From assembly GCA_038998335.1 (NCBI GenBank), contig JAVZHQ010000001.1, positions 128,001 through 192,000 on the forward strand: a DNA stretch of 64,000 bases, given 5' to 3'. The DNA is from Candidatus Aenigmatarchaeota archaeon. Its GTDB lineage: Archaea > Aenigmatarchaeota > Aenigmatarchaeia > CG10238-14 > SCSR01. A program made the translations under genes and the position numbers. Positions within the stretch are counted from its first letter, which is position 1, and every line of letters starts with the position of its first letter. Positions 9,932 through 33,496 of this stretch are shown one piece after another. The notes beneath the pieces are model-generated. The model was not told the DNA's origin. It ran no database searches and worked only from the letters and a program-made list of their open reading frames with translations.

Positions 9932-9947
9932 TGTTAGACGTCTAACA
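9932..9947. repeat. 16-bp palindrome TGTTAGACGTCTAACA, copy 1
   Basis: Exact copy, intergenic. Confidence 0.95.
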
Positions 9948-10017
9948 AAAAACCAACTTTCTAAAATTTCCCTAAGGGAAACAAAAAATATATATTTTTG
10001 TTTCCTATATTTCTTTT

Positions 10018-11295
10018 ATGCTAAGAGAGGTTTTACTAGAGTGGAAAGAGAAAGAACTACCGCAAGATATAATCGAGAGAGATTTAAAGGTATGGATAAA
10101 CAAGCACATAGTTTCCCTTATAGGACCAAGAAGAGCCGGTAAAACCTATTTTATGTTCCAGCTAATAAAAGAGCTTTTTGAAAAGAATAATTCCAAAGAT
10201 AATGTTGTTTACATAGATTTTACCGACCCAAGAGTAAGAAAAATTGGTGTTTCTGAGTTTTTAAAGGAAGTAAATTCACTGTTTAAAAATCAAGTTTTTC
10301 TTTTCTTGGACGAAATTCAAGAGTTAGAAGAATGGTCTTTGTTCGTTAGAACTTTGTACAATTTCCAAAAATATAAAATAATAATTTCTGGTTCTTCTTC
10401 AAAACTTTTAAGCAGAGAGATTTCAACCGAGCTAAGAGGAAGGTGTATTCCTTATATAATTTTTCCTTTTACCTTTAAAGAGTTTCTTAAGCTAAAAAAG
10501 TTTGTAGTTAGGGAAGAAATTTCTAAGGCAAAGGTTGGTGAAATTTTAATGCTTTTGAAAGAATTTCTTGATTTTGGAGGGTATCCTGAAATTCTTCTTG
10601 CTGACGAGAAAAACAAGAAAATTGAAATAGCAAGAACCTATTTTACTACCGTATTTTTTAAGGATTTGATAGAAAGGTTTAAAATAAAAAATGTTGCACT
10701 TATGGATTATTTTGTTAGGTATTGCATAGCAAACTCTTCCTCCTATATTTCATTAACAAAAATTGAAAAAGAATTGAAATCGATTGGCTTGAAAGTTAGC
10801 AAAAAAACCTTAGCGAATTATTTAAAGTATGTGGAAGAGGCTTTGTTCCTTTTTCCGATAAAAAGATTTTCTTTAAAGTACAGAGAAAGAGCAAAGTATC
10901 CTGCAAAGATTTATTTGGTAGATAATGTTTACTTTGCGATTGAACCAAGGTTTTCAAAAGATTTTGGGAAAAAAATGGAAAACTTGGTAGCTATTTCTCT
11001 TTTGAGAAAAAAGTTTGAAGGAAAAGTTGATGAAATTTTTTACTTCAAATCGAACGATTTTGAGGTAGATTTTGCTGTGAAAAAAGGTTTAAAAATCAAT
11101 CAACTAATTCAAGTTACCTATGCTTCTAGTAAAGATGAGGTTGAGAAAAGGGAAATTAGGTCTTTAATAAAGGCAAGCAAAGAACTTAAATGTAAAGATT
11201 TGCTAGTAATAACCTGGGATTATGAAGATCAATTAAAAATAAAAAACAAAAAAATTGTTTTCAAACCTTTGTGGAAATGGCTGCTAGAAAGTTAG
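10018..11295 (+). CDS. AAA+ ATPase (AAA_14 + DUF4143, C-terminal PD-(D/E)xK-like domain)
   Basis: GPRRAGKT, FLDEIQ, SGSSS, GGYPE, EVDF...IQV, PLWKWL. Confidence 0.9.
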   Translation: MLREVLLEWKEKELPQDIIERDLKVWINKHIVSLIGPRRAGKTYFMFQLIKELFEKNNSKDNVVYIDFTDPRVRKIGVSEFLKEVNSLFKNQVFLFLDEIQELEEWSLFVRTLYNFQKYKIIISGSSSKLLSREISTELRGRCIPYIIFPFTFKEFLKLKKFVVREEISKAKVGEILMLLKEFLDFGGYPEILLADEKNKKIEIARTYFTTVFFKDLIERFKIKNVALMDYFVRYCIANSSSYISLTKIEKELKSIGLKVSKKTLANYLKYVEEALFLFPIKRFSLKYRERAKYPAKIYLVDNVYFAIEPRFSKDFGKKMENLVAISLLRKKFEGKVDEIFYFKSNDFEVDFAVKKGLKINQLIQVTYASSKDEVEKREIRSLIKASKELKCKDLLVITWDYEDQLKIKNKKIVFKPLWKWLLES

Positions 11296-11300
11296 TTTAG

Positions 11301-11324
11301 AAATTGTTAGACGTCTAACAATTT
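11301..11324. repeat. Palindrome copy 2, extended to 24 bp (AAATTGTTAGACGTCTAACAATTT)
   Basis: Core at 11305-11320; extended palindrome starts 5 bp after the ATPase stop. Confidence 0.95.
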
Positions 11325-11424
11325 TAAAGCATTTCTTTCAAGTTTTTCTGTTTAGTCTAAAATTTTTCTTTTACAAAAGAGATAAAATTTAAATATTTTG
11401 CTTATGAGAGATTATTAGAAAAAC

Positions 11425-11634
11425 ATGGCGTTAAGAGTTAAGAAAGGGGAAGAATATAAAATTCACAGAATAGCAGAAGCGATAGAGCAAGGAAAGGTAG
11501 AAGGTGTTTCGAGAAAAGATTTTAGGGAAATAACAGACCCAGAACTTCTAGCTCTTTATGAAATAGCTGAAATGGTTTATTCCTTTAAAAAAGCTTTAGA
11601 ATACTTGAAGGATTTTCTTGAGTCTAAGGAATAA
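11425..11634 (+). CDS. Hypothetical small protein
   Basis: 69-aa ATG ORF. Confidence 0.6.
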   Translation: MALRVKKGEEYKIHRIAEAIEQGKVEGVSRKDFREITDPELLALYEIAEMVYSFKKALEYLKDFLESKE

Positions 11635-11691
11635 ATTTTGCTGATTTTCTTAACCACAAACTTTTTAAAAAAGTTTGTGAATATAAATTAT

Positions 11692-12990
11692 ATGGAAACA
11701 GAGGAGATTAAAAGAGTTATAGTGTCTCAGAAAGAGGAAATGGAAGAAAAGTTTGAAAGAGGGGAAATAATAGAAAGAGAAGTGGAAGTAAAAAAGCTGA
11801 GAAATTTTCTTGTTCGTCCTAACATTTTAGTTATTCTAGGGGTAAGAAGATGCGGAAAATCTATATTTTCTTGGCAAATTTTCAGAGATGGCAAGTTTGG
11901 TAGTATTAATTTTGACGATGAAAGATTGGTTGGGATTGAAGCAAAAGATTTGGATAAAATTCTTCAAGCTTTTTACGAGCTTTACGGAAGGGTAGATAGA
12001 ATTATTCTTGATGAACCTCAAAACGTAGAAAATTGGGAGTTGTTTGTTAATAGGTTAAGAAGAAGTAAAAAAGTTATAGTTACTGGTAGCAACTCAAAAC
12101 TTCTTGCAGGTGACTTAGCAACTCACTTAACAGGAAGATATGTAGATTTCACTCTCATGCCTTTTAGTTTTAGAGAATTTTTAAAATACAAAAAAGTTGA
12201 AATGAAAAAAGAAGATTTTTATTCAACAGTGAAAGTAGCAGAGATAAAGAGGCTTCTTGAAAATTATGTGAGGCTTGGAGGGTTGCCAGAAGTCTTTACT
12301 TTCGGCAAAGAAATTCTTGTTAGGATTTATGGAGATATTATAGAAAAAGATGTGCTAAGAAGGTTTAAAATAAAGAGAAAGGATACTTTTAAACAGTTTG
12401 CAAAGTATCTAGTTTCCAACATAGCTTCTGAGTTTACAATGAGAAGACTTTCATCTACTTTTGAAGTAAGGGATTCGCATACTTTAAAAAATTGGATCGA
12501 TGCCTTAGAAAATTCTTATTTGTTTTTTATTCTAGAAAGATATTCTCCCAAACTAAAAGAGCAAATTATTGCACCAAAAAAAATTTATTGTGTGGATACA
12601 GGAATAGTTAATGCTGTTTCTTTCAGAACTTCTGAAAATTTCGGTAAACTGATGGAGAATTTGGTTGGGGTTGAACTGGTTAGGAGAAAAAACTATTGGT
12701 ATAAAAACTTGGAAATTTTCTACTGGAAAGACTATCAGCAGAATGAAGTTGATTTTGTTTTAAAAGAGGGATTAAAAGTTAAACAATTAATTCAAGTTAC
12801 CTATGCTTCTAGTAAAGATGAGGTTGAGAAGAGGGAAATTAAGTCTTTGGTTAAAGCTTCCGATTTACTTAAATGTAAGGATTTGTTGGTAATAACCTGG
12901 GATTACGAAGGTCAACAAAAGATAAAAAACAAAAAAATTGTTTTCAAACCTTTGTGGAAGTGGCTATTGATTGACTTTTTTTATTGTTAG
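11692..12990 (+). CDS. AAA+ ATPase (AAA_14 + DUF4143), second paralog
   Basis: GVRRCGKS, ILDEPQ, TGSNS, GGLPE, EVDF...IQV; ATG at 11692. Confidence 0.9.
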   Translation: METEEIKRVIVSQKEEMEEKFERGEIIEREVEVKKLRNFLVRPNILVILGVRRCGKSIFSWQIFRDGKFGSINFDDERLVGIEAKDLDKILQAFYELYGRVDRIILDEPQNVENWELFVNRLRRSKKVIVTGSNSKLLAGDLATHLTGRYVDFTLMPFSFREFLKYKKVEMKKEDFYSTVKVAEIKRLLENYVRLGGLPEVFTFGKEILVRIYGDIIEKDVLRRFKIKRKDTFKQFAKYLVSNIASEFTMRRLSSTFEVRDSHTLKNWIDALENSYLFFILERYSPKLKEQIIAPKKIYCVDTGIVNAVSFRTSENFGKLMENLVGVELVRRKNYWYKNLEIFYWKDYQQNEVDFVLKEGLKVKQLIQVTYASSKDEVEKREIKSLVKASDLLKCKDLLVITWDYEGQQKIKNKKIVFKPLWKWLLIDFFYC

Positions 12991-13000
12991 ACGTCTAACA
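12985..13000. repeat. Palindrome copy 3; supplies the ATPase TAG stop
   Basis: Exact copy; TAG at 12988-12990 lies inside it. Confidence 0.95.
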
Positions 13001-13048
13001 AAAGAAAATATTTGAGCAACCTTTAATTAATTGAAATTAAGGTAAAAC

Positions 13049-14329
13049 ATGCTTGACATTAAATTGATAAGAGAGAAGCCAGAGTTTGTAAGGAAAAATT
13101 TGGAAAAGAGGCAAGACCCGGAAAAATTGAAAATGTTCGAAAGACTTTTAGAGCTTGACAAGAAATTGCGCAGCCTCAAAACAGAAATGAACAAACTGAG
13201 AAACAGAAGGAACAAACTTACTTTAGAAATTTCAAGGTTGAAGAAAGAAAACAAGGATACAAGCAAAATCTTAAACGAAGCTAAGAAAATCCACGATGAA
13301 ATAAAAAGAATGGAAGAAGAGTCGAGCAGACTGGAAAAAGAAGTAAGGGATATTTTGCTCAGGCTACCGAACATTTTGCACGATTCTGTACCTTTTGGTA
13401 AAGATGAAAACGATAACGTTGAAATAAGAAGAGTTGGTTCCCCACCAAAGTTTAACTTTAAACCAAAAAATCATCTAGAAATTGCTTTAGAGTTGGGTTT
13501 GGTAGATCAAGAAAGGGCAGCAAAAGTTGCTGGGGCAGGCTTTTTCTACTTTAAAAAAGAATTGGTTTTGCTCGATCTAGCTATTCAAAAGTTTGCTCTA
13601 GATTTTATGATAAAAAAAGGCTATATTCCTGTAGAGCCTCCTTTCATGATAAACAGAAAAGCTTACGAAGGAATGATAGACCCAAGCGACTTTGAAATGG
13701 TAACTTACAAAATAGAGAATGAAGATTTATACTTGATAGCAACTTCTGAGCATCCTATAGGAGCAATGTTTATGAATGAAATTTTAAATAAAAAAGACTT
13801 GCCTTTGAAGTTTGTTGGAATAAGCCCATGTTTTAGAAAAGAAATAGGCACGCATGGAAAATACACGAAAGGATTTTTCAGGATGCATCAGTTTAACAAG
13901 GTTGAGCAATTCATTTTTTGCTTGCCAGAAGATTCCTGGAATTTGCACGAAGAGCTGCAAAGAAATTGTGAGGAGCTCTATCAAGCTTTAGGTTTGCATT
14001 ACCGTGTAGTAAACGTTTGCACAGGAGATATAGGAACAGTAGCGGCAAAAAAGTACGATACAGAGGTTTGGATGGTTGACGGAAAGTTTAGGGAAATAGG
14101 CTCAAACTCTAATTGCACAGATTATCAAGCAAGAAGGCTTAACATTAGGTTTAGAGAAAAGGAAGGAGAAAAGCCAAAAGGTTTTGTCCATACTTTAAAC
14201 TCTACTGCCTTAGCGACAAGCAGAACCATGCTAGCTATTCTTGAACACTTCCAGCAAGAAGACGGGAGCGTGAAAATCCCAAAAGTTTTGGTTCCTTACA
14301 TGAACGGAATTGAGGTTTTGGGTGAATGA
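13049..14329 (+). CDS. serS: Seryl-tRNA synthetase
   Basis: MLDIKLIR, coiled-coil arm, LIATSE, FRKE...RMHQFNKVE, SNCTDYQARR. Confidence 0.97.
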   Translation: MLDIKLIREKPEFVRKNLEKRQDPEKLKMFERLLELDKKLRSLKTEMNKLRNRRNKLTLEISRLKKENKDTSKILNEAKKIHDEIKRMEEESSRLEKEVRDILLRLPNILHDSVPFGKDENDNVEIRRVGSPPKFNFKPKNHLEIALELGLVDQERAAKVAGAGFFYFKKELVLLDLAIQKFALDFMIKKGYIPVEPPFMINRKAYEGMIDPSDFEMVTYKIENEDLYLIATSEHPIGAMFMNEILNKKDLPLKFVGISPCFRKEIGTHGKYTKGFFRMHQFNKVEQFIFCLPEDSWNLHEELQRNCEELYQALGLHYRVVNVCTGDIGTVAAKKYDTEVWMVDGKFREIGSNSNCTDYQARRLNIRFREKEGEKPKGFVHTLNSTALATSRTMLAILEHFQQEDGSVKIPKVLVPYMNGIEVLGE

Positions 14330-14340
14330 GTTTTTTATAC

Positions 14341-14355
14341 GTTAGACGTCTAACA
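14341..14355. repeat. Palindrome copy 4 (15/16 match)
   Basis: GTTAGACGTCTAACA, followed by ATTTTAAAGC as in copy 2. Confidence 0.93.
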
Positions 14356-14360
14356 ATTTT

Positions 14361-14486
14361 AAAGCTTCCTCCTTGCTTAAATGCAAAGATTTGCTAGTAA
14401 TAACCTGGGATTATGAAGATCAATTAAAAATAGAAAACAAAAAAATTGTTTTCAAACCTTTGTGGAAGTGGTTGCTAGAAGTTTAG
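14361..14486 (+). pseudogene. 3' remnant of a third AAA_14/DUF4143 ATPase
   Basis: Translates KASSLLKCKDLLVITWDYEDQLKIENKKIVFKPLWKWLLEV*; no start codon; near-identical to the ends of the two intact ATPases. Confidence 0.92.
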
Positions 14487-14546
14487 TTTTTTTAAAAATG
14501 GTTTATTCTTCCAAAAAAGTTACAGGATGGTAGCAATTTTTTTCTA

Positions 14547-14562
14547 TGTTAGACGTCTAACA
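14547..14562. repeat. Palindrome copy 5
   Basis: Exact copy, 12 bp past the transglutaminase stop. Confidence 0.95.
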
Positions 14563-14574
14563 TTAACAACCTTT

Positions 14575-15165
14575 TCATTTTCTCAAACTTTCTATCAATT
14601 CTTTCATCTTTAGGCTAGAGCGACTAAACCTTAGAATGAGCATGGAAAAAAGAGCTAAAAAAACAGAAAGCTCCCTTATTCTCAAGACTCCAGAAATTCT
14701 TTTCCAGCTTGGTCTGTCAAACTCGCTTAAAGGAATTAGCTTTTCCGTATCCTTTCCAAAAGTTGGATCTACAACTTTCCATTCATTGTTTAAGTAAACT
14801 TCAGCAGCTATATGTCCAACTTTTTTTGGAAAATCCTTTACCTTAGCGTTAAGCTCGCATCTAAGTATTAAAAGATACCTTGCAGGAATTCCAACAGCTC
14901 TGCAAAGAGCTATGAAGAGATTAGCTTTATCTGCACATACTCCATGCATAGGGTTTCTTTTTAGCGTTTCCTTAGCACCAACTATCTCTTCTACTTTCCA
15001 AGCAACATTATCCCTTACCCAATAAAAAAATGCTCTAGCAGCTTCTTCAGGAGTTTTTTTATCTTTTGCTAAAGCTTGGGCTAGCTCTTTTATTTCTGGC
15101 AGGTTAGATTCGCACAAAAAAGTTGGTTCGCAATATTTTTCATAACCTTTTGGAGGTTCAAACAT
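14575..15165 (-). CDS. Transglutaminase-like protein
   Basis: GVCADKANLFIALCRAVGIPAR, HIAAEV, WKVVDPT (Cys-His plus acidic motif); ATG at 15165. Confidence 0.88.
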   Translation of the reverse strand: MFEPPKGYEKYCEPTFLCESNLPEIKELAQALAKDKKTPEEAARAFFYWVRDNVAWKVEEIVGAKETLKRNPMHGVCADKANLFIALCRAVGIPARYLLILRCELNAKVKDFPKKVGHIAAEVYLNNEWKVVDPTFGKDTEKLIPLSEFDRPSWKRISGVLRIRELSVFLALFSMLILRFSRSSLKMKELIESLRK

Positions 15166-15193
15166 ATAATTAATTTGTTTGTTAAAAGATAAA

Positions 15194-15207
15194 TTGGAAT
15201 ATTCCAA
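15194..15207. promoter_or_regulatory. Putative operator TTGGAATATTCCAA
   Basis: Perfect 14-bp palindrome; same core upstream of the HTH gene at 18247-18258. Confidence 0.6.
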
Positions 15208-15214
15208 AAGTTTT

Positions 15215-15928
15215 TTAAATTTTTTCGCTAGTTGTTAGCAAGGTACTATGAGAATAATAAGTTGTTTTTGTGTTAAGGATCTTGAAGTTGTTTTCCTCAA
15301 GAAGTTTCTCTACATAAGTTTTAGAATAAGGGGTAAGGTTGACTTTTAATTTCATGGGAATGTTCATCAAGCCAACAACTACGCAGAAAGGAAGGGATAA
15401 AATCGTTTGTTTTGGTTTTTCTTTTAAGGAATACTTAAAGCCGCTTTTTCCCTTAGAGTATTCTACTTCACTTGTGTAGACTAAGCTTAGCCTTCCTCCC
15501 TTTCTTAAAATTCTCCTCGCTTCTCTTACAAAATTTTGTAAAGAGCTTGGGCTTAAGTAGTTTATAAAGTTAACAGCAGCGATTCCGTCAAAGTAGTTAT
15601 CATTAAAAGGAAGCTTTTCTTCAAAATAGTACTTGTAAAGCTTGACGTTAGCGTTTGAATTTTTAATTTTTTTTGAGGCAATTTTAAGCGCTTGCTCTGA
15701 AGCATCTATACCCCAAACCTCAATTTCCTTAGAATTTTTAACTAGATATTGAATCAAATTTCCTGTTCCACAACCAACGTCAAGAAATTTCTTTCCTTTA
15801 CTAAAGTTTAAGCTTTCAGCAGTATCTCTTATCATTTTTTTGTATGGAGCAAAGTTGTTTAGGGAGTCGTAAAAAAATGGATAGATTTCCCAGAGCAAAT
15901 CAGTTAAGCTAGCTGGCATAGAGCTCAC
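15215..15928 (-). CDS. Class I SAM-dependent methyltransferase
   Basis: FLDVGCGTG, GIDAS, LPFNDNYFD, ILRKGG. Confidence 0.9.
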   Translation of the reverse strand: MSSMPASLTDLLWEIYPFFYDSLNNFAPYKKMIRDTAESLNFSKGKKFLDVGCGTGNLIQYLVKNSKEIEVWGIDASEQALKIASKKIKNSNANVKLYKYYFEEKLPFNDNYFDGIAAVNFINYLSPSSLQNFVREARRILRKGGRLSLVYTSEVEYSKGKSGFKYSLKEKPKQTILSLPFCVVVGLMNIPMKLKVNLTPYSKTYVEKLLEENNFKILNTKTTYYSHSTLLTTSEKI

Positions 15929-17360
15929 TTTCGAGTTCTTTTGAGGGCGAGAGGATAAGATTGTGTGGCTTAAATTGGAGACTAGGAAAAACGATTTCTC
16001 TTAGCTTACCCTCGTCTATTTTTTTGAATCTAAGGAGGCTGTATCGTAAAGGGCAAACAGTATATCTTATCTTTTTACACATTTCTTCATAATTTCTCTC
16101 TTCCATACTACTTGGAATTAATATCAGCAGCTCTTCTTTTGTTTGTGGCTTGCAAATCGCAAAATTATAACCCGCATAAGATGTTAAGATTTCTTTTAGA
16201 ATGTCAACAGAAACAGGATACTCTTTTATTTTTACGTAACCACTCTCGTGCTTCCTTCTTATGTCAATAGAAAGGGACGGAAAGGGAAGTGTTATTTTTT
16301 GATTGTTTAGGGTGATTGTGGTGGAATAGCTTACAAGCCTTGTAACATCACCTGGTGCATAATCAATTAGACATGTTCCCTCGAAGGGAGAGGTTATTTT
16401 GATTTCGCCTTCTTCGCCTTCGCTAACATTTTCACCTTTTTCGTCAACAACTCTGATATGGCACAGGTTTCCCATCACCATCAAGCTATCGCTAGCTTCC
16501 CAGTTTCTATCTACACTTGAAATAATTCCATAAGCTACACAGCCTAAGGGCATACATTCCTGGGCACCATAGGCGTCTATAACTATTTTAGCTCCTATTT
16601 CATGTCCCAAGTCTATAACCTCTTTGCTTGGTTTAAAGCCTCCGGTACCTATGAACATCAAGTTCTTATACCTAAGTTTGTTCTCGACCATAAAAGTACC
16701 TATATCCCTTAAAATTGATGGTGTAATCAAAACCCCGTTTGCATCATTTTCTATAGAATCTAAAACATAATCACAAAGTTGTTCATGACTTAAAGGTTCC
16801 CCATAAGGTAATACTCTCAAAGGAATTTTTTGCGAGACTCGCATAAGAGAGGCGAAAGGATACGTCCCGGAGCCACCATAAATGTACATTCGAGAAAAAA
16901 TAGCTACACTTGGCGTAGAAATGTTTGCAAAAAATCTCCTAAGACCACGGAGATAAAGTTCTTTTATCACAGTATTAACATCTTTTTGTGTATAGGCTAT
17001 TTTCTTTCTTTTAAATTTCTTTATTGTTTCAAGAAAACTTTCCCCGCTTCTTAATCTTTCTACTAAGCTATAACCTGAAGACACTTGTACCCACGTCCTT
17101 TTATTTTGAGGTACAAGGCTTAAATGGGATGAAAAGTCATTTCCCATAAGGTCTGTACCTTCGACCCAGTTTACCTTATACTTCTGAAGGAAGTTATCAA
17201 GCTTTTCTATCGAGTTAATTCTTCTTACCTCGGAAAATTCAATCGAGTTTTCCCTTAACTTTTCTCTATAAAATGGTATCGAAAGCATAGCATCCCTAAC
17301 TTTTTTAGCTATGCTATTCTGCTTTATTTTAACATAAAAGGGCGCTATTTTCTCTATCAT
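15909..17360 (-). CDS. Phenylacetate-CoA ligase (PaaK)-like adenylate-forming enzyme
   Basis: PFYREKL, SSG, DAYGAQE, GEEGEIKIT, YAPGD. Confidence 0.7.
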   Translation of the reverse strand: MIEKIAPFYVKIKQNSIAKKVRDAMLSIPFYREKLRENSIEFSEVRRINSIEKLDNFLQKYKVNWVEGTDLMGNDFSSHLSLVPQNKRTWVQVSSGYSLVERLRSGESFLETIKKFKRKKIAYTQKDVNTVIKELYLRGLRRFFANISTPSVAIFSRMYIYGGSGTYPFASLMRVSQKIPLRVLPYGEPLSHEQLCDYVLDSIENDANGVLITPSILRDIGTFMVENKLRYKNLMFIGTGGFKPSKEVIDLGHEIGAKIVIDAYGAQECMPLGCVAYGIISSVDRNWEASDSLMVMGNLCHIRVVDEKGENVSEGEEGEIKITSPFEGTCLIDYAPGDVTRLVSYSTTITLNNQKITLPFPSLSIDIRRKHESGYVKIKEYPVSVDILKEILTSYAGYNFAICKPQTKEELLILIPSSMEERNYEEMCKKIRYTVCPLRYSLLRFKKIDEGKLREIVFPSLQFKPHNLILSPSKELESELYAS

Positions 17361-17364
17361 AGTA

Positions 17365-17901
17365 TCACTTTTTTACCTCTATTTGAAACGTACAATATGG
17401 AGCACCTTTAGTGTAGCAGGAAAGCTCTTGTATTTTAGGTGTAGAATGGTATAATATTTTTAGAGGAGCAAGTAAATTTGCTTCTACTATTTTACATACT
17501 TTTGAATTTTTTCCCCATTTTTGTTTAGCATATTCTACAAGCGGAGAATTTTCGACTTTAACTGTATAGACTATTTTTTCTTTATTTTCTTTTTTGTTGA
17601 CCAAAGTAAATTTCCCCAACCCGTAAAAGTCTGCAAATGGTAAAAGCTTCTCTATGTTTAGGGAGGATGGTGATAAACCAAATGCTTTCGTTGCGTTTTC
17701 GATTGCAATTTCTGTGGCTTCCATTAAAATTTTAAAGGCTTTTTTTTCTCCAAGTTCTTCAAATATTTTCTGATGAAGATACGCAAATCCACAACTTTCT
17801 ACTAAAGTCACATTGTATCTTCCCAAAATCGTAACCCTTCCTTCTTCAGCAGAAAAAGCCCTTCCAAGCAAAAGTTTTTTCAAAATAACAGCTATTCCCA
17901 T
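17365..17901 (-). CDS. V4R-domain protein
   Basis: GLG, ENSP, KVC...ELSCYTKGAPYCTF. Confidence 0.8.
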   Translation of the reverse strand: MGIAVILKKLLLGRAFSAEEGRVTILGRYNVTLVESCGFAYLHQKIFEELGEKKAFKILMEATEIAIENATKAFGLSPSSLNIEKLLPFADFYGLGKFTLVNKKENKEKIVYTVKVENSPLVEYAKQKWGKNSKVCKIVEANLLAPLKILYHSTPKIQELSCYTKGAPYCTFQIEVKK

Positions 17902-17910
17902 TCTCTCACC

Positions 17911-18207
17911 TCACAACCCTTTTAATAATTCGTGCACAACCCTAAGCTTTTCAATCTCAGTAGGCCATGCTATGTAAGTGTTTCCAACTTTTTTCATGTC
18001 TATTAACCCCATTTCCTTAAGCTTGCGAAAATGGTAAAGGTACTTTGCAGAAAGCGTTTTCTCTTTTCCTTTATCTCCTAAAATCTCAGCAACTTCTAGC
18101 GGATTTGTAGGCCATCTAGAATGAATAATTTCAAAGACTTTTGCTGTAAGTTGAGAGACTTTTTTTACTCTTACGCTTTCAAGCATTTCTTCAAAGGTTT
18201 TTTCCAT
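17911..18207 (-). CDS. Winged-helix transcription regulator
   Basis: PLEVAEIL...YHFRKLKEMGLI. Confidence 0.7.
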   Translation of the reverse strand: MEKTFEEMLESVRVKKVSQLTAKVFEIIHSRWPTNPLEVAEILGDKGKEKTLSAKYLYHFRKLKEMGLIDMKKVGNTYIAWPTEIEKLRVVHELLKGL

Positions 18208-18214
18208 AATTTAA

Positions 18215-18258
18215 GAATATTCCATAAAGTATTTATAAGTTATGTATGGAATATTCCA
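18215..18258 (-). promoter_or_regulatory. Promoter of the HTH operon: TATA (TTATAAATA, 18230-18238) between GAATATTCCA (18215-18224) and TGGAATATTCCA (18247-18258)
   Basis: TATA lies 23-31 bp upstream of the ATG; repeated palindromic core. Confidence 0.6.
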
Positions 18259-18292
18259 AAAAAATCTATGAAATGTTTGTTGGCTGCTTTTC

Positions 18293-18308
18293 TGTTAGAC
18301 GTCTAACA
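18293..18308. repeat. Palindrome copy 6 (degenerate copy AGTTAGATGTTTAACA nearby at 18425-18440)
   Basis: Exact copy. Confidence 0.95.
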
Positions 18309-18673
18309 ATTTTTTTCCTTTTACAACAAAATTACAACTTCTTTAAAATATTTTTCTTTTAAAAAATTTCTTAATCTTCACCATGCTTTTTTTTAAATTT
18401 CTATCCTAATGATAGAAAAATTTAAGTTAGATGTTTAACATATTTCTAAAACCCGTAATTTTAAATATTTTCAAATCGAGTTTAAATATTATGTGTTATA
18501 AAGATTTCCCAAATGAGTGCAAGAAATGTAGGCATTTATTTGAAGAATATAAAATAGCTCAGAGTTATTTTATAATTCCGATAAAATTTTATCGTTCGTC
18601 CGAATGTACCAAATATGCTCTTAAGACTCATGAAATAATTTCTGCTCTACCTCTTTTAGAAATTAATTTTAAA

Positions 18674-19609
18674 TTAATTTCTACATTTGTTAATCGAGTA
18701 TTTCGAGCTTAACATTTCATTGTCAGTCATAACCTTTCCTGAAGATTTTATGTTTATTTTTGAGTACTCGGGTATAATAAATAACAATTTATGAATATTT
18801 TCATTGTAGAATTTTAAATTTGTTATCATCCTTTTCTTTATCCTTTTCTTTATCTCTTTTTTGCTTAATAAAAGCGGATCAAACTTTTTTGATCCAGCAA
18901 CAAAACCTGCACCAAAAGAATAGCCACGAACTATCGGGAAAACATTACTAACGGTTGCGTATATAGAACTAAAAGTATGAGAATTATAGAAAGGTGATGT
19001 GGCTTGTGTAACAAATATCCCATTTTTCTCCAATTTTCTTTTAACAATCTCGTAAAATTCTTTAGTGTATAGTCCAGCAGAAATTCCACACGGCGAAGGG
19101 TCTGTAGCATCGATAATTATACAATCAAATTTATCCGATTCTTCGATGAGATAGTTTCTTCCATCATTGAATATAACTTCTACTTTACTATTGTAAAAAG
19201 ATCCTTGATGAATTTCTTTTAAATATTTTTTGGCCACATCGACAACATCTTTACTTATTTCAACCATTTTTATTTTCTTAACAATATTATGTTTAAGTAC
19301 TTCACGGATAGTTCCACCTTCACCCCCACCAATTACTAGTACTTTTGATGGGCGCGGATGTGTTATCATTATAGGATGTACGAGGGTTTCATGGTAAATC
19401 CATTCATCGTTTAAAGAAGATTGTATTTGATTATTTAAAACAAAACAGATGCCTCTGTCATATGTCTCTACAATTTCAATTTTATGATACTTTGTTTTTT
19501 TTCTATAAATTACTTTTTTTATTCTATAAATGGTTGCCATCGTAGGTGTAATACAATCTAAAAGTATTTGTCCACTAAAATTATTTTCAGTTAGTTTATT
19601 CTTTTTCAT
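18674..19609 (-). CDS. speE: Polyamine aminopropyltransferase (spermidine synthase family)
   Basis: YHETLVHP, VLVIGGGEGG, DGR, IIIDATDP. Confidence 0.92.
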   Translation of the reverse strand: MKKNKLTENNFSGQILLDCITPTMATIYRIKKVIYRKKTKYHKIEIVETYDRGICFVLNNQIQSSLNDEWIYHETLVHPIMITHPRPSKVLVIGGGEGGTIREVLKHNIVKKIKMVEISKDVVDVAKKYLKEIHQGSFYNSKVEVIFNDGRNYLIEESDKFDCIIIDATDPSPCGISAGLYTKEFYEIVKRKLEKNGIFVTQATSPFYNSHTFSSIYATVSNVFPIVRGYSFGAGFVAGSKKFDPLLLSKKEIKKRIKKRMITNLKFYNENIHKLLFIIPEYSKINIKSSGKVMTDNEMLSSKYSINKCRN

Positions 19610-19647
19610 AATTTAATTTAAATAATTAAATTACTTAAAATAGTTCA

Positions 19648-19986
19648 ATGAAAATTAAAGAACTTTTGATAGATGCTTATAACTGTTCTGGAAACTTAAA
19701 CAATAGTAGACTATTGTTATCTATTTTAATCAAATCCGCAAAAAAAGTTGGTGCTAAGGTTGTAAACTGGTTGGTTCATAATTATAAACCTTTTGGAGTT
19801 AGTGTTGTAGTTTTGTTAGCAGAGAGTCATGTATCAGTATACACATGGCCAGAATATAAGTATGCAGCGATTGAAATATTCCTTTGTAACGAGAAAATGA
19901 ATCCGGAGCTCGTTTGGAAAAATATTAAAAAATATATTCGGCCCAAAAAATATTTTATCAAAAAAGTTTATAGAAGTGTTAAATAA
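19648..19986 (+). CDS. speD: S-adenosylmethionine decarboxylase proenzyme
   Basis: GVSVVVLLAESHVSVYTWPE, FLC. Confidence 0.88.
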   Translation: MKIKELLIDAYNCSGNLNNSRLLLSILIKSAKKVGAKVVNWLVHNYKPFGVSVVVLLAESHVSVYTWPEYKYAAIEIFLCNEKMNPELVWKNIKKYIRPKKYFIKKVYRSVK

Positions 19987-19994
19987 TGCTACTT

Positions 19995-20771
19995 TTACTC
20001 TTTTTCACTTAGAATTTTTCCGATAAATTTCTTCCAATTCCCAATACTTTTAACATCTTCAAGATGAACTTGAAATAATTTAACATACGGATTTCTTGTC
20101 TTTTTTGGTAAAGGAATGTTTAGTACGCGAAAGGTTATTATATCTGTTATGGCTTCGTTTATTTTTGATTCATCTTTCCTGTATTTTTTAGGAATTTGTT
20201 TGATTATTCTATTCATTAAATTTAAGTGCACGAGTTCATGCGTTATAGCAAGTTTTAATAATTTATTATCGTTGGTTCTTCCAATAGCAATTCCATTAGG
20301 AGGTACAGGTTCAGCACCAAATTTATACTCGAAAGAAAGTGCTTCTATCAAATAAATTTTAATTTCTCTTGGGAATGGTAAATTAGTAAAAGTTTCTATT
20401 TTATTTAAAGTATCGAGGACAAAATTTTTATCTATTTTTTTTGAAAAATTTTTAAGTTTTGGTTCAATCTCTTTTTTCCATAAGGGTTTATAAAGCCTAC
20501 TACTCTTAAGTAAAATTCTCTCTACTCTTTTTTCAAATTCACTCATACATTTTTTAAGACGTTTCTTTTTACCTATTGCTTTTTTAAAATACCAAGAAAT
20601 ATTTTGAGGGTCAAATTCCCATCCAAACTCTTTACTTAGTTTTTCAAAGTTTGAGAATTCTGTGGCATATTTTTGATTGAATCTTTGAGGAACGCTTCCG
20701 CTAAGCTTCTCAAGATGATAAAAAAGATTTAATTTAAAGTTGATTTCGACGCTAAGCTTGGTAGATTTCAT
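19995..20771 (-). CDS. HExxH-motif protein, putative gluzincin-like metallopeptidase
   Basis: THELVH followed by NEA about 20 aa downstream. Confidence 0.55.
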   Translation of the reverse strand: MKSTKLSVEINFKLNLFYHLEKLSGSVPQRFNQKYATEFSNFEKLSKEFGWEFDPQNISWYFKKAIGKKKRLKKCMSEFEKRVERILLKSSRLYKPLWKKEIEPKLKNFSKKIDKNFVLDTLNKIETFTNLPFPREIKIYLIEALSFEYKFGAEPVPPNGIAIGRTNDNKLLKLAITHELVHLNLMNRIIKQIPKKYRKDESKINEAITDIITFRVLNIPLPKKTRNPYVKLFQVHLEDVKSIGNWKKFIGKILSEKE

Positions 20772-20801
20772 AAATTATTTTAAATTTTTTAAAATTAATA
20801 A

Positions 20802-21752
20802 ATGAATATGCAAAAGAGTGATTTAAAAAAATTCGAGAAAGAAATTTATTTTAACATAAACTACAGAAGTACCTGTAATAATAACTGTCTATTTTGTGAT
20901 GCTGACGAAGGTTATGAACTAATAACTTCTCAAAAAATTTTTGAAATTCTAGAGAAAGAAAGAGTAGGGCCTAAAGATAGAGTAGTATATTGTGGAGGTG
21001 AGCCAACAACTCACCCAGAAATAATAGATATAGTTCAAGGTACATGTAAAAAGTATTCGTCAAATTTATATTTCTTGACAAATGGAAGAAAACTTTCGGA
21101 TTTGGAATTTTCGAAGAAGCTTTTAAAAAAAATAAAAGGTGGTTGTGTTTCCGTCCCTATTTATGGTTACACATCAAGTATGCACGATTATTTAACTCAA
21201 TCAAATGGAAGTTTTAAGGAAACTATTAAAGGGGTAACTAATTTATTTAAGTTAAGAGACGATTATGGGTTTGATTTTGAGATAGAACTTAAAGTATTAA
21301 TTTGTAAACCTACCTATAAGTATATCTCTAAGATTGTTAAATTCATACAAAAAAAATTTCCCCAACCTGACTATTTAGTAATAAGTTCTTTGGACATTTC
21401 AAATCGTGTTTTGGAAAATCTTGATAAAGTATTTGTAAGATTAAGTGAAGCATCTCCTTATCTTCGAGAAGCCATAGATATGATCGATGATAAAGAAAAC
21501 TTAGTTCTATATTTTATACCATTATGCATCCTAAAAGATGAAAAATATTTTCCAATAGCTAATAGTTTACGTGGAATCCTTTGTAAAGCTCCTACAAAGT
21601 ATTATGATCCGCGTAATCTCAACGGAATAGTAGGATATACGGAGAAATCAAAAAGCCCTAACTGTAAACTTTGTAAATATGATAATTTTTGTGATGGTCT
21701 ATGGAAAAGATATACAAATTTAGTTGGTTTTGGGGAGCTGGTACCTTTTTAA
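20802..21752 (+). CDS. Radical SAM protein, HxsC-like
   Basis: CNNNCLFC, GGEPT, TNG, HDYLT...GSF, C-terminal CKLC.....C. Confidence 0.8.
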   Translation: MNMQKSDLKKFEKEIYFNINYRSTCNNNCLFCDADEGYELITSQKIFEILEKERVGPKDRVVYCGGEPTTHPEIIDIVQGTCKKYSSNLYFLTNGRKLSDLEFSKKLLKKIKGGCVSVPIYGYTSSMHDYLTQSNGSFKETIKGVTNLFKLRDDYGFDFEIELKVLICKPTYKYISKIVKFIQKKFPQPDYLVISSLDISNRVLENLDKVFVRLSEASPYLREAIDMIDDKENLVLYFIPLCILKDEKYFPIANSLRGILCKAPTKYYDPRNLNGIVGYTEKSKSPNCKLCKYDNFCDGLWKRYTNLVGFGELVPF

Positions 21753-21776
21753 TTAGTACCAATTTAGCTTAATAAA

Positions 21777-22550
21777 CTAGCGTTTTTTTCCTATAGTTAA
21801 TATATCCATCCCAAGATTAATGAAAGGTTGTGTTTTTGCGAGAGATTCTTCTAAATTCAGATAATAATAAAGGTTGTCTATCAATTCTTTGGAATTTTCT
21901 AGAAAAAAGAAAAAAGGAATAAATGATATTCCTTCCATAGAAATTAAATAGAAATACTTTTTTATCAGAGAACTCAGTTCATTTGTATCGTAGAGCCGAA
22001 CTTCTAACTTTTTATCTCCTATGTAATGTGGATAAATTTTTGAGTTATTTTTAAGAGCTTCCAAATGTTTTTTATTCTGAAGTCTTATGTACGAGTATTT
22101 GGAATAGAAAGTAGATAAAAAAATACCATCCTTTCTTATAACTCTTTTGATTTCTTTAAGCACGGGTTCTATCCTTTTAACATAGTTTAGAGACCCGTAA
22201 ATACTCACTATACAATCAAACTCCTCATCTTTGAAATAATGCAATTTTGTTGCAGAAAGAACTTTGTAACTAACTTTGTTTTCAACCTCCTTGGGCAAAT
22301 TTTCTACAGCCTTCGTAATCATTTTTGTTGAAACATCTATTCCAGTAACGGTGCAATTCCTCTTTTGAGCAAGATATATGCTAGGGAAACCAGTCCCACA
22401 ACCGATGTCGAGAACTTTAGAATTTTTGGGAATATATTTGTCTAATATACGTTTAACTCTTTCTCTATAGAAGATTTGATAAGGTCTTTCCATCAAGTTG
22501 TCGTAGTGAGGTGCAAATGAATTATAAGCTTTTTTTACTCTTTCCATCAT
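21777..22550 (-). CDS. Class I SAM-dependent methyltransferase
   Basis: VLDIGCGTG, GIDVS, FDCIV. Confidence 0.9.
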   Translation of the reverse strand: MMERVKKAYNSFAPHYDNLMERPYQIFYRERVKRILDKYIPKNSKVLDIGCGTGFPSIYLAQKRNCTVTGIDVSTKMITKAVENLPKEVENKVSYKVLSATKLHYFKDEEFDCIVSIYGSLNYVKRIEPVLKEIKRVIRKDGIFLSTFYSKYSYIRLQNKKHLEALKNNSKIYPHYIGDKKLEVRLYDTNELSSLIKKYFYLISMEGISFIPFFFFLENSKELIDNLYYYLNLEESLAKTQPFINLGMDILTIGKKR

Positions 22551-22573
22551 TCCATATTTTTAAGGCTAATAAA

Positions 22574-23899
22574 TTAAAATGTAATTTCTTTAGTCCAAGG
22601 ATCTTTATAGTTGTTGATAATGAAATTTAATAAGAATTTGTAGTATCCTTTTATAAATTTACAGAAAGGAGAAGGTTTAAAAGTATCATTATAAAAATGC
22701 AAGCATTCACCAGGACAACCACCGTTACAAAAAAATTGCCATGGACAGCTTGTACATTCTTTTATCGTACTTGCAGCTCTTAATGGAAATTTAATAAAAT
22801 TTTTATAAGCTTCCTGAAAAGAATTCAATTCAGTTACATTACCAAGTTTAAATGTAGGTATTTGAAGTCGGGTGCAAGGATATAAATTCCCATTTATATC
22901 AACAAAATACATTCTTAACCCTGCAGCGCACCCTCTCGATAAACATATATTTTTATCATACATCCTTGTTAAGTTGTCGAAGTACTCGTCTAAAAGTTTT
23001 GACTTACAGCCTTTTCTTTTAAGTTTGTATGCTTCTAGAAAAATCCTCTTTTTAATAGTAAGAAATTCTTCAGGAGAAATAAGTAATGAAGCATTTTGTT
23101 TCGCCCTCCCCATTAAAATTATGTAATTGAACCTAGAGGCAGAAATGTTAAGATCAAGCCATAAATGACGTAAAATACCTTCTGGCTCCTTCATATTAAA
23201 CTTGTGGAAAGTAGTAATAGAAGATATCCAATTGAAACCAGCATTTCTTAAATTTTCAATAGCTTTAATTACATTATCGTAGCTTCCTCTACCGTTCTCG
23301 TAAATTCTCGCTGAGTTATGTTCAAATTCACGACCATCAATACTTATACCAACTTTTATATCATACTCTTTAAGTTTTTTTGCAATCTTAGGTGTCAAAA
23401 TTGTCCCATTTGTTTCGATATTAACTTTTAACTCCGCAAGATCTTTTTTTAACTCTCTAATTTTATTTATTAACCACTCAATTTTTTTCCATTCTAATAA
23501 AGGTTCACCTCCAGAAGGTTGAATTCCTATTCGCTTATTAGGTAATTTTGCAATTAACTCAGCAATTCTCTCGAGAGTTTCTTTTTTCATACTTTTTCCC
23601 TTTCCAGCATCGGCATAACAGTATTTACACCTTAATGTACATTTCTTAGTAAGTTCGATCTCTATAAGTGTTGGGTTAAAGTCATATCTCTTTACAGAAA
23701 CTGGCCGAAGTTGTCCGTCTAACTTTATTATACCTCTCCAAAAAAATTTTCGAATAAGATTTTCATTCCATTCATTATTTGTAAACTTCCTATAAATATC
23801 ATTAGAAATATGTACCCAACCTCCTGTTAGATGAGAAAATATCACATAACCATTTTTAGTTTTCCATGAAGAATAAGGGAGTACTTCTACTTTTACCAT
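22574..23899 (-). CDS. Radical SAM/SPASM peptide maturase with N-terminal RRE-like extension
   Basis: CTLRCKYC, GGEPLL, ETNG, SIDG; SPASM Cys pattern CLSRGCAAG...GNLYPC...CTSCPWQFFCNGGCPGEC...FC. Confidence 0.9.
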   Translation of the reverse strand: MVKVEVLPYSSWKTKNGYVIFSHLTGGWVHISNDIYRKFTNNEWNENLIRKFFWRGIIKLDGQLRPVSVKRYDFNPTLIEIELTKKCTLRCKYCYADAGKGKSMKKETLERIAELIAKLPNKRIGIQPSGGEPLLEWKKIEWLINKIRELKKDLAELKVNIETNGTILTPKIAKKLKEYDIKVGISIDGREFEHNSARIYENGRGSYDNVIKAIENLRNAGFNWISSITTFHKFNMKEPEGILRHLWLDLNISASRFNYIILMGRAKQNASLLISPEEFLTIKKRIFLEAYKLKRKGCKSKLLDEYFDNLTRMYDKNICLSRGCAAGLRMYFVDINGNLYPCTRLQIPTFKLGNVTELNSFQEAYKNFIKFPLRAASTIKECTSCPWQFFCNGGCPGECLHFYNDTFKPSPFCKFIKGYYKFLLNFIINNYKDPWTKEITF

Positions 23900-24189
23900 A
23901 CTATTCCCATCTCTATAAGCTCGTCTAAAATTTTACTAGCATTATTTTTAAAGTAAGGTTTAAGTATATTAAGGATTTGGTATTTTTTCAATTTTCCCTT
24001 TTCTAATTTTTGGAATAATTTTTCCAAACAAGGTGAGTATTCTACTTCAAAAACTCGTGATGCGTGATCGTCTAACAAAAATATTTTTGATTCTTTAATA
24101 ATAACCCTAACCGCGGGTGATAATTTAAATGTAGATAAATTTTTACCTGTAATTATTTCTACATGAGAAAAGGGCCTTTCTATTATCAT
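23893..24189 (-). CDS. Small PqqD/RRE-like protein (tentative)
   Basis: 98 aa; beta-strand-like segment then helices ending ILDELIEMGIV; between the peptide and the rSAM. Confidence 0.55.
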   Translation of the reverse strand: MIIERPFSHVEIITGKNLSTFKLSPAVRVIIKESKIFLLDDHASRVFEVEYSPCLEKLFQKLEKGKLKKYQILNILKPYFKNNASKILDELIEMGIVW

Positions 24190-24207
24190 AAATTATCATA
24201 TAAAGAT

Positions 24208-24372
24208 TTAGGTAGTTGTAGACCAGTTAAGCCAGTAGGCTTTTATAGGAACATCAGAAGGCTGAAGATCCTCGTAGCTTATTTCTTTGCAATAGGTGAA
24301 GGGCACACTTCTAAACTCATTCTGCAAGGACAACTTTTTATCTTTTATTGAGATTTTATACGCTTCTTCCAT
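24208..24372 (-). CDS. Putative RiPP precursor peptide, 54 aa (not in ORF track): MEEAYKISIKDKKLSLQNEFRSVPFTYCKEISYEDLQPSDVPIKAYWLNWSTTT
   Basis: Translated by hand, ATG to TAA; TATA-like TTATAAATA at 24395-24403; first gene of the rSAM operon. Confidence 0.8.
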   Translation of the reverse strand: MEEAYKISIKDKKLSLQNEFRSVPFTYCKEISYEDLQPSDVPIKAYWLNWSTTT

Positions 24373-24457
24373 AAATTATAAAAATTACTTAAAATATTTA
24401 TAAGTTACGGATATAAAGGTGCCTTTAAATTTGTAATCTCAACTTAGAAAATACTTG

Positions 24458-24829
24458 TTATAAAATTACAACGTTTGGTAAATCCTTAAAATGCAAGTCT
24501 CCTGTGACTATCTTTAAACCAAAAACCAAGCTGGAAGCCAAAATAAAAGAATCTAGCATACCCCAATTTTTGACTACTTTTTTCCTGTAAAAATTTATTT
24601 TTCCAGCTGAAACGCTTGTAGCTTCGTCTAAAGTTAAAATGGTTGAAAGTTCCTTTATCTTTTTAACAAATTTTTCTGGAGTTTCACCACATCTCAAACA
24701 ACATTCAGCTATTTCAGCAAGCGAAACAATACTAGTAAAACACCTTTTTTCCTCTAGAATTTTCTTTACTTTTTTTCCTTTTTCACTTCCGTTAAAAAAC
24801 TCAACCCAAGCATGAGTATCCAAAAGCAT
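24458..24829 (-). CDS. vapC: VapC/PIN-domain toxin
   Basis: LLDTHAW, SLAE, DSFILA, TGDLHF. Confidence 0.9.
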   Translation of the reverse strand: MLLDTHAWVEFFNGSEKGKKVKKILEEKRCFTSIVSLAEIAECCLRCGETPEKFVKKIKELSTILTLDEATSVSAGKINFYRKKVVKNWGMLDSFILASSLVFGLKIVTGDLHFKDLPNVVIL

Positions 24830-24832
24830 AAA

Positions 24833-25036
24833 TCATCCTTTATGTTCTCTTTCAAACTTCAACTTTCCTTTAGCAATTCCGAAGGCTTTTTCAACAGCTT
24901 TTTTGTCTGGTTTTAACAAGGCTATCTCCACCTCTTCCCCCTCTTTAACATTTTGCTCTACAGCTATTTTCTTAGGTATTAAAACTCCTAAAGAAGTTCC
25001 AACTACTCTTATTTTTGTTTTGAACACTTCTGGCAT
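24833..25036 (-). CDS. AbrB/MazE-type antitoxin
   Basis: KIRVVGTSLGVLIPK...EGEEV; directly upstream of the PIN gene. Confidence 0.88.
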   Translation of the reverse strand: MPEVFKTKIRVVGTSLGVLIPKKIAVEQNVKEGEEVEIALLKPDKKAVEKAFGIAKGKLKFEREHKG

Positions 25037-25184
25037 CTATTATAATTTATTATAATTTCTATTTAAACTTTTCTTACCACTAAAAGTAGCAGTTTTGAAT
25101 TTTTACCTACAGAAAACTTTAAAAATTAAGGAGAATATTTAATTTTACCAAGTTGATGACTTTTTTTGAGATTTTGGTGTTAGT

Positions 25185-26791: not shown

Positions 26792-26937
26792 ACTAAATAA
26801 AATTAAGTGAAATAAGCTTAAAAACTTTTGTTTTTTAAACAAAAACACATGCAAACACTTAAAAAATTTTTATAACTACCTAAAAGTTAGAACTAACTTT
26901 ACTTAACTTAAATAAATTCAGAGATTAATTATATAGT

Positions 26938-33480: not shown

Positions 33481-33496
33481 TGTTAGACGTTTAACA
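33481..33496. repeat. Palindrome copy 7 (TGTTAGACGTTTAACA, one mismatch)
   Basis: Between the tRNA-Leu 3' end and the aIF2alpha start. Confidence 0.85.

Follow-up and report, generated by a model that had tools for sequence, protein, structure and literature searches.

What is the 16-bp palindrome TGTTAGACGTCTAACA, which recurs between the genes of a 64,000-nucleotide stretch of a Candidatus Aenigmatarchaeota archaeon genome (contig JAVZHQ010000001.1, positions 128,001 to 192,000, i.e., G000:C1:128001-192000; hereafter the window), and what would recognize it? This genome (G000) is about 1.0 Mb in size with 33% GC, consists of 9 contigs, and is 90% complete, and the DNA of the window was found in hot-spring metagenomes. 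The palindrome is present in the window as five perfect and two one-mismatch copies and in none of 100 dinucleotide-preserving shuffles, in agreement with a first-pass annotation, which had offered a recombination site for a cassette array, a repetitive extragenic palindromic (REP)-like element, and a high-affinity protein site as possible explanations. Judging from the sequence patterns described below, we consider it somewhat better than an even chance (roughly 55%) that the palindrome is the cognate, operator-like DNA site of a stand-alone 69-aa Cas2-fold protein, here called mini-Cas2, and has been copied to about 20 gene boundaries. The last two of the earlier suggestions both fit this evidence, namely that a solo Cas2-fold gene has the palindrome in its own promoter and that gene and palindrome co-occur and co-vary across relatives.

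The mini-Cas2 gene and its palindromes

The mini-Cas2 gene (G000:C1:317854-318063, minus strand) is located about 126 kb beyond the end of the window. Its upstream DNA consists of TGTTAGACGTCTAACA, 19 bp containing the TATA-like AAAAATTTTTAAG, TGTTAGACGTATAACA, 4 bp, and the ATG, such that two sites flank the TATA-like box of the promoter, and a third site lies about 41 bp past the stop codon. An operator in its own promoter is the arrangement of an autoregulated transcription factor. Known Cas2 proteins serve a structural or nuclease role in the CRISPR spacer-integration complex and are related to VapD-type toxins. The predicted structure of mini-Cas2 (predicted local distance difference test, pLDDT, 96.5) had exclusively Cas2 proteins among its top 15 Foldseek matches (3exc, 2ivy, 5h1o, and others; template modeling score 0.54-0.70), and the protein has a calculated isoelectric point of 9.9 and a weak match to PaaX_M (E 0.045). 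Cas1 was not found at E ≤ 0.1 in this 90%-complete genome, and a crude repeat scan of the genome found no CRISPR array.

The mini-Cas2 family is small: a search of 1.84 billion proteins gave 60 cluster representatives at E ≤ 1e-10, most of them 67-75 aa long. In the family alignment, R22 (located in helix 1), L24, W37, and G57 are invariant, and D8, the Asp after strand 1, is nearly invariant. A homodimer model scored 0.61 (best of three controls, 0.00), with runs agreeing in at least 96% of contacts and a partner pLDDT of at least 92, and passed the mark that was reached by 20 of 30 proteins solved as same-chain pairs and by 1 of 23 solved as single chains; solved Cas2 dimers exist, so that this pass may reflect likeness only.

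Homologues of mini-Cas2 are present in 25 of 41 related genomes, with 16 paralogues in G009 and 6 in G010. At 20 of 29 homologue loci (23 genomes), the ATG is preceded at 2-51 bp by a 16-bp palindrome with at most one bad pair. Most of these palindromes have the form TGTNNNACGTNNNACA, they usually abut or follow a TATA-like box, and their inner bases vary between homologue loci or paralogues (e.g., TGTAATACGTATTACA, TGTTATACGTATAACA, TGTAGAACGTTCTACA, and TGATACACGTGTATCA). All eight perfect TGTNNNACGTNNNACA palindromes of G010 are linked to paralogues, four of them sitting 17-23 bp upstream and the other four being identical to those. Similarly, 17 of 37 palindromes in G009 match the promoter palindrome of a resident paralogue, and TGTAATACGTATTACA in G011 is found upstream of one paralogue and at three other places. 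The general TGTNNNACGTNNNACA pattern, which has 1-40 copies per genome (reversed-pattern control, 0-2 per genome), was present in 20 of 25 genomes with a homologue versus 3 of 16 without (1-2 copies each; Fisher p = 2e-4, in a test that treats related genomes as independent, which they are not). In G004, a genome of the same genus, the cognate gene was not found in our search, and both sites at the TyrRS/TFB1 spacers, which flank TFB1, were also missing. No description of this pairing was found in the literature at the level of listings and abstracts.

Some other loci of the family are described here for completeness. A single different perfect palindrome, TGTCATACGTATGACA, is located at G000:C1:344566 inside a 279-bp stretch that is absent from the congener G001; it is also found 20 bp upstream of a G004 mini-Cas2 paralogue with an in-frame TAG, and because G000 has no such paralogue, TGTCATACGTATGACA in G000 may be an orphan operator. 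In G022, G008, and G007, which represent three other genera, a mini-Cas2 homologue is encoded inside a conserved cluster whose G000 counterpart (773.6-777 kb) has no such gene; these homologues have no clear palindrome, and their genomes have 0-2 pattern sites. In G030, which belongs to a different family and has a different palindrome, the one small gene bracketed by the dominant palindrome of that genome, TGTTATACGTATAACA, was considered as a cognate candidate and rejected, since it is not a family member by hidden Markov model; it looks histone-fold-like by eye.

We propose that mini-Cas2 would form a symmetric dimer through its β-sheet, which would leave helix 1 (residues 14-26, including R22) free to read the two half-sites. 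With one site just upstream of the TATA-like box and the second between the box and the ATG, the mini-Cas2 gene would shut itself off. The other ~18 copies would be the same operator copied into spacers between genes, typically 0-16 bp past a stop codon and/or ~35-60 bp before the next start, just upstream of a TATA-like box, where bound mini-Cas2 may tune or insulate the neighbors, acting as a roadblock after one gene and as a promoter-proximal factor of the gene that follows. Their identity would also make the copies favored end points of deletions, insertions, and one inversion-like join, which would give the region its look of gene-sized modules.

Placement, conservation, and copying of the sites

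Genome-wide, 21 copies with at most one mismatch were found, 16 of which are perfect; all are intergenic, all are located on contig C1, spread over 660 kb, and 16 of them fall into five clusters with a spacing of ≤4 kb. In a genome scan, this was the sole recurring GC-containing 14-mer palindrome (19 copies versus at most two for any other). Restriction-site avoidance was uninformative, because GACGTC occurs 24 times, 19 of them within the motif, and other CG-containing palindromic hexamers are equally rare. The neighbors of the sites include serS, a class I W/Y aminoacyl-tRNA synthetase, two transcription factor B (TFB) genes, RpoD, eIF2-alpha, thymidylate kinase, TatD, aconitase X (AcnX), an Lrp/AsnC regulator, and three tRNA genes.

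Twenty-three of the 42 site arms face a gene 3′ end (11 of these within 20 bp of the stop codon), and 19 face a gene start, 10 of these at 35-58 bp from the ATG, while five of the 21 sites are flanked by convergent gene ends and three by divergent starts. With regard to the fixed distance to promoters by which the first-pass annotation would have recognized an ordinary transcription factor site, the outcome is mixed, about half of the start-facing arms lying in this range and the convergent sites having no promoter to regulate. In G030, 17 of 30 start-facing arms lie 30-60 bp from the ATG, and many TATA-like boxes are found about 9 bp from the site, as judged by eye.

Inside the window, every copy lies between open reading frames (ORFs), as the first-pass annotation had claimed, and the gene content that it gave for the intervals was also confirmed. 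The first perfect copy (9932..9947) is located 28 bp past a 78-aa ORF and 70 bp ahead of the gene for DUF4143 AAA+ ATPase 1 (ATPase1, AAA_14 + DUF4143; 10018..11295, plus strand), and the second (11305..11320, perfect) lies 9 bp past the ATPase1 stop and has a 10-bp right flank in common with the copy at 14340. A unit of a 69-aa ORF (ORF69) and a second DUF4143 ATPase (11425..12990, plus strand; ATPase2, 11638-12990) follows, whose stop is overlapped by a perfect copy (12985..13000), and 48 bp further on begins serS (13049..14329, plus strand), the sole seryl-tRNA synthetase gene of the genome. Ten base pairs past the serS stop lies a copy with one mismatch, a C at position 1 (CGTTAGACGTCTAACA, 14340..14355), which is followed by an ATPase 3′-end remnant (14361..14480, plus strand; 40 codons, 92% identical to ATPase1 residues 385-424). 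Two perfect copies bracket a five-gene minus-strand operon (14575..18207): one (14547..14562) in a convergent context, 12 bp beyond the operon 3′ end, and the other (18293..18308) 85 bp upstream of the operon start. The degenerate copy at 18425..18440 (AGTTAGATGTTTAACA) is indeed present, with three mismatches. The outlier at 33481..33496 (TGTTAGACGTTTAACA, one mismatch) lies between the 3′ end of tRNA-Leu (42 bp) and the start of eIF2-alpha (59 bp), and the alignment between G000 and G001 stops 16 bp away from it.

The five-gene operon encodes a transglutaminase-like protein, an S-adenosylmethionine methyltransferase, an AMP-binding-like protein, a V4R-like protein (weak), and a 98-aa protein with weak helix-turn-helix (HTH) matches; the operon itself was confirmed, and the earlier HTH call on its first gene is weak (E 0.06-0.08). 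PDC-S01, a candidate defence family of PADLOC, is matched by ATPase1 (E 1e-101) and ATPase2 (E 6e-105), and ATPase1 has an additional weak match to an Mrr-type nuclease. The earlier description of an accessory region fits these ATPases, which vary between relatives; the sites mostly neighbor housekeeping genes, and therefore this is not simply an accessory region. The ORF69 + ATPase2 module is missing from G001, and in G005 ORF69 stands alone between two sites. Genome-wide, DUF4143 ATPases are present as four full copies and two 3′-end remnants (window 14361-14480 and G000:C2:10193-10318), and the ends of the ATPase genes form ~130-bp repeats, apparently mediating deletions. In G004 (contig C70), the serS locus has only start and end fragments of the gene and no palindrome copies. 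Elsewhere in the window, we found the archaeal RNase P RNA (30036-30291, minus strand; 137 bits) and a tRNA (36050-36133, minus strand) that was detected by Rfam (46.6 bits) and absent from the ARAGORN output, and which may be intron-containing or unusual.

The exact motif is present in all five other genomes of the genus (17, 1, 11, 4, and 15 copies) and in G006 of a sister genus (21 copies); three further genera have one-mismatch variants, another genus has one exact copy, and the motif was not found in the 16 genomes of other families that were searched. Within the genus, the sites are kept at orthologous places as their flanks drift: orthologous sites of G000 and G001 are identical at 173 of 176 positions versus 795 of 885 for 40-bp flanks (p = 6e-5), and the sites of G005 are 16/16 identical with varying flanking bases. 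For G006, 15 site loci were fetched, and where their genes have homologues in G000, as many do not, none of these is found within 1 kb of a G000 site; between genera, the sites therefore change position. Solo sites are present in G003 as insertions of ~20-40 bp into spacers that are free of sites in G000, and flanks of 7-12 bp, in direct or inverted orientation, are common to pairs of G000 sites (control maximum, 5), from which we conclude that new copies arise by copying and not by point mutation.

Structural change at the sites

Genome rearrangements end at the palindrome more often than expected, and we read this moderately raised chance at the identical copies as a side effect. For this comparison, 739 kb of G001 was aligned to G000 and indels were counted at ≥150 bp. 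Alignment breaks lie within 40 bp of 10 of the 21 sites versus 27 of 139 midpoints (19%) of control spacers of ≥100 bp (p = 0.007), and a junction end is found in 8 of 17 site spacers versus 67 of 410 others (odds ratio 4.6, p = 0.004), a test inflated by the greater length of the site spacers (median 255 versus 63 bp); both tests count sites bounding one module as independent. Four modules are arranged as site-X-site in G000 and reduced to a single site in a congener, i.e., ORF69 + ATPase2, AcnX, a three-gene module (G001), and Yip1 (G005), and in G001 the Yip1 spot has one site plus a degenerate one, about 45 bp from each other. Both AcnX sites continue inward for 12 additional inverted bases, so that an excised circle would carry a 40-bp perfect palindrome. 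On contig C14 of G005, a site joins, in inverted order, regions that are 112 kb apart in G000, each adjoining a site. Of the 21 sites of G006, 13 are no more than 1 kb away from a contig end, compared with ~18% expected. The synteny comparison that the first-pass annotation had suggested has a mixed outcome: synteny with the congener is broken at about half of the sites, but 76 of the 83 indels or rearrangements between G000 and G001 are site-free, and only seven have a site at their end.

Several details temper a site-specific interpretation of these events. The right-hand junctions of the site-X-site modules are not letter-exact. The ATPase2 indel was rejected as a site-specific event, since its crossover lies in the ~130-bp repeat at the ATPase 3′ gene end and not demonstrably in the site; it was placed there because the ATPase1 3′ end of G001 resembles the ATPase2 3′ end of G000. 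Site-bounded allele exchange, considered as an explanation of jumps in block identity, was also rejected, as sliding windows put the shifts at ~315000 (G001) and inside TFB1 (G005). In addition, about three breakpoint loci lie beside tRNA genes, one of them with a tRNA-adjacent integrase element (G001).

The DNA to the right of site 18293 differs among G000, G001, and G002. Instead of the 8.6-kb stretch of G000 (window 18308-26932), G001 has 1.6 kb of unrelated genes, and in G002 the equivalent of this site is joined directly to the equivalent of window 24458, making this spot hypervariable. At G000:C1:778622-785187, 6.5 kb beside an intron-containing tRNA gene are absent in G001 and G003, and the tRNA of G001 is bracketed by two palindrome copies. 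At G001:C10:20496-26172, a site and tRNA-Glu are followed by a tyrosine integrase 48% identical to that of G000:C2 and then, as far as the contig end, by about 4 kb whose genes lack G000 homologues, which looks like a tRNA-integrated element. The G000:C2 region (119023-127761, 8.7 kb), which encodes a 388-aa tyrosine integrase and is absent from G001, has no terminal repeat of >11 bp.

The first-pass annotation had seen no recombinase in the window, and this proved right: the genome encodes four tyrosine recombinases, none within the window. The best of them is a XerA equivalog (280.6 bits, cut-off 220; versus TIGR02249 integron integrase, 235.5 bits, cut-off 265), the only strong tyrosine recombinase near sites; its gene (G000:C1:795193-796047) lies 396 bp from site 796443, an arrangement also found in G001 and G003. 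Neither IS110 nor an intact serine recombinase was found in the genome, which has a decayed IS607-like copy on C8, and its TnpB genes are located on small contigs without sites. The sole Y1 gene, on C9 (no sites), was examined as a candidate REP-associated tyrosine transposase (RAYT) and rejected, because it matches IS200 with 84 bits (cut-off 55) and REP_Tyr_transpos with 26 bits (cut-off 80).

Rival readings and comparison with known systems

Several observations weigh against mini-Cas2 as the reader of the palindrome. Its Cas2 matches are below or near the cut-offs in Pfam, NCBIfam, and PADLOC (PF09827, 20.7 bits, cut-off 23.8; TIGR01573, 21.1 bits, cut-off 24.5), and we know of no Cas2-fold protein that acts as a sequence-specific double-strand DNA binder. 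Whole-protein and half-site divergence are only weakly correlated, with a Mantel r of 0.21 (p = 0.056, n = 14), once near-identical genus mates are left out, compared with 0.41 (p = 4e-4, n = 17) when these are included, and G006 has the same palindrome with a homologue that is only 49% identical. For some palindromes, no partner was found: G004, which is only 80% complete, keeps four exact-motif sites with no cognate gene found, the dominant palindrome of G030 has no cognate among the five homologue hits of that genome, and 20 of 37 palindromes in G009 have no identified cognate gene. Furthermore, the copies between convergent gene ends have no promoter to regulate, and the letter-perfect copies, some of them sharing flank, look more like the product of copying than like an evolved regulon.

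The last point would be expected if the palindrome were a selfish REP-like repeat that is copied or converted into spacers together with a few flanking bases, with mini-Cas2 as its mobilizing nuclease or nickase and any host function secondary. The non-orthologous copies of G006, the short insertions of G003, the shared flanks, the near invariance of D8 (the active-site Asp of Cas2), and a partner gene bracketed by the repeat as RAYT genes are by REPs all speak for such a repeat; we nevertheless consider it rather unlikely, since no nuclease activity or mobile intermediate has been seen, copy numbers are low, orthologous sites are kept within the genus as flanks drift, and the placement beside TATA-like boxes recurs in G030 with another palindrome. 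Also unlikely, and slightly more so, is an active role of mini-Cas2 as a sequence-specific nuclease or nickase, or as a recombination co-factor, that by cutting or pairing its own palindromes would copy them and cause deletions, insertions, and inversions. Site-specific recombination, in which circular modules carrying one palindrome integrate and excise via XerA, another recombinase, or mini-Cas2 as a dispersed integron-like system, would account for the site-X-site modules (AcnX, the three-gene module, and Yip1), the additional inverted bases at AcnX, the inverted-order join in G005, the excess of breaks, junction ends, and G006 contig ends at sites, and the XerA gene close to a site. We doubt it more strongly, judging from the many site-free events, the inexact junctions, the ATPase2 crossover in the gene-end repeat, the identity shifts away from sites, the test-inflating length of the site spacers, the tRNA genes and integrase element at some breakpoints, the presence of single-copy serS and TFB in the modules, and the lack of IntI, IS110, RAYT, and an intact serine recombinase among the genes found in the genome. 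A 16-bp core is also short for known tyrosine or serine recombinases.

The operators might instead belong to another regulator, with the mini-Cas2 genes as its targets and not its source; the Lrp/AsnC gene ends 9 bp from site 326091, and the gene of the 98-aa HTH-like protein starts 85 bp from window site 18293. This is improbable, because the co-occurrence is with the mini-Cas2 family and because the paralogues of G009 and G010 each have their own palindrome, which would need a matching set of regulators. A protein-independent signal, in which the hairpin and an adjacent T-run serve as a transcription terminator or RNA-stability element at gene ends, would agree with the arms close to stop codons and with the finding that 15 of the 23 arms facing 3′ ends adjoin a T-run of ≥5, compared with only 189 of 821 genes overall that have one within 25 nt of the stop (p = 3e-5). 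The T-run, however, precedes the palindrome on the incoming side instead of following it, which is not the order of an intrinsic terminator (GC-rich hairpin and then T-run), and it is found beside only 2 of 20 such arms in G030. Letter-perfect conservation without compensatory variation is unexpected for a mere hairpin, three copies lie between divergent starts, and the link to the mini-Cas2 promoter would be left unexplained, so that we regard a terminator as highly improbable.

If mini-Cas2 is indeed the reader of the palindrome, it would represent a DNA-binding protein of a new kind, a stand-alone 69-aa Cas2 fold with a specific palindrome as its target that acts on its own promoter and at about 20 gene boundaries, with many paralogue-palindrome pairs in one archaeal order. 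Genome-reduced DPANN archaea have few classical regulators, and the pair would provide a handle on the control or insulation of their tightly packed genes, while the breakpoint excess gives a way to test whether a DNA-bound factor is linked to genome plasticity. If mini-Cas2 also cuts or pairs its sites, the result would be a Cas2-based system, independent of CRISPR, by which gene boundaries are marked and modules reshuffled in ultra-small archaea, and mini-Cas2 could be a living relative of the repeat-recognizing ancestor of the CRISPR adaptation machinery.

Integron attC sites are imperfect palindromes or hairpins of ~57-141 bp with R″-L″...L′-R′ boxes and extrahelical bases; their accessory cassettes are co-oriented and mostly lack promoters, and the array adjoins the gene for the integrase IntI. 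The half-sites of our palindrome match GTTRRRY/RYYYAAC as strings, the intervals are gene-sized, and some modules are present or absent between relatives. Unlike in attC, the two core strings abut in reverse order as a perfect palindrome without a spacer, the flanks are conserved as A/T runs only, no IntI was found in the genome, the orientation is mixed (the operon is on the opposite strand), and housekeeping genes are included (serS, TFB, the TyrRS/TrpRS-type synthetase, RpoD, and eIF2-alpha). The archaeal integron paper concerns canonical attC sites (PMC9668308). Taken as an integron, the cassette-array suggestion of the first-pass annotation is not supported.

Neisseria dRS3 and intergenic mosaic elements are short palindromic repeats, single or in small arrays, in strain-variable spacers that mark the ends of rearrangements; sequence, host, and partner enzymes differ from ours, and the likeness is no more than an analogy. 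The parS site of bacteria, also 16 bp long and palindromic, fits the TGTNNNACGTNNNACA frame. ParB/parS was nevertheless rejected, since no ParB_N was found in the genome (a control matched in 10 of 14 reference genomes), and the copies of the palindrome differ from parS in being strictly intergenic and tied to the mini-Cas2 promoter. Mini-Cas2 resembles the Cas2 of CRISPR adaptation modules in its fold, in the conserved Asp past strand 1, and in the modeled dimer, but it is shorter, falls below the family cut-offs, and is encoded in a genome where neither Cas1 nor an array was found. With autoregulated repressors it shares an operator between the TATA-like box and its own start and a probable dimer as the binder, and the middle domain of PaaX is Cas2-like (Pfam PF20803), consistent with the weak PaaX_M match. 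In contrast to these repressors, mini-Cas2 has no HTH domain, the whole protein being the Cas2-like domain, and its extra sites are letter-identical, with many at gene 3′ ends and 5 of 21 between convergent ends.

In bacteria, REP/REPIN sequences are short palindromes dispersed in spacers, often past stop codons, the RAYT partner gene is bracketed by the repeat, and repeat and protein change together. Our palindrome is likewise dispersed and intergenic (21/21), with a single partner gene bracketed by the repeat, whereas the partner has a Cas2 fold of 69 aa instead of being an HUH Y1 transposase, the repeat, a perfect palindrome of 16 bp, has about 20 copies, and the host is an archaeon. The palindrome and mini-Cas2 do not pass the tests that define integrons, REP/RAYT, ParB/parS, or CRISPR adaptation modules, and are somewhat like a REP-RAYT pair or a small autoregulated regulon.

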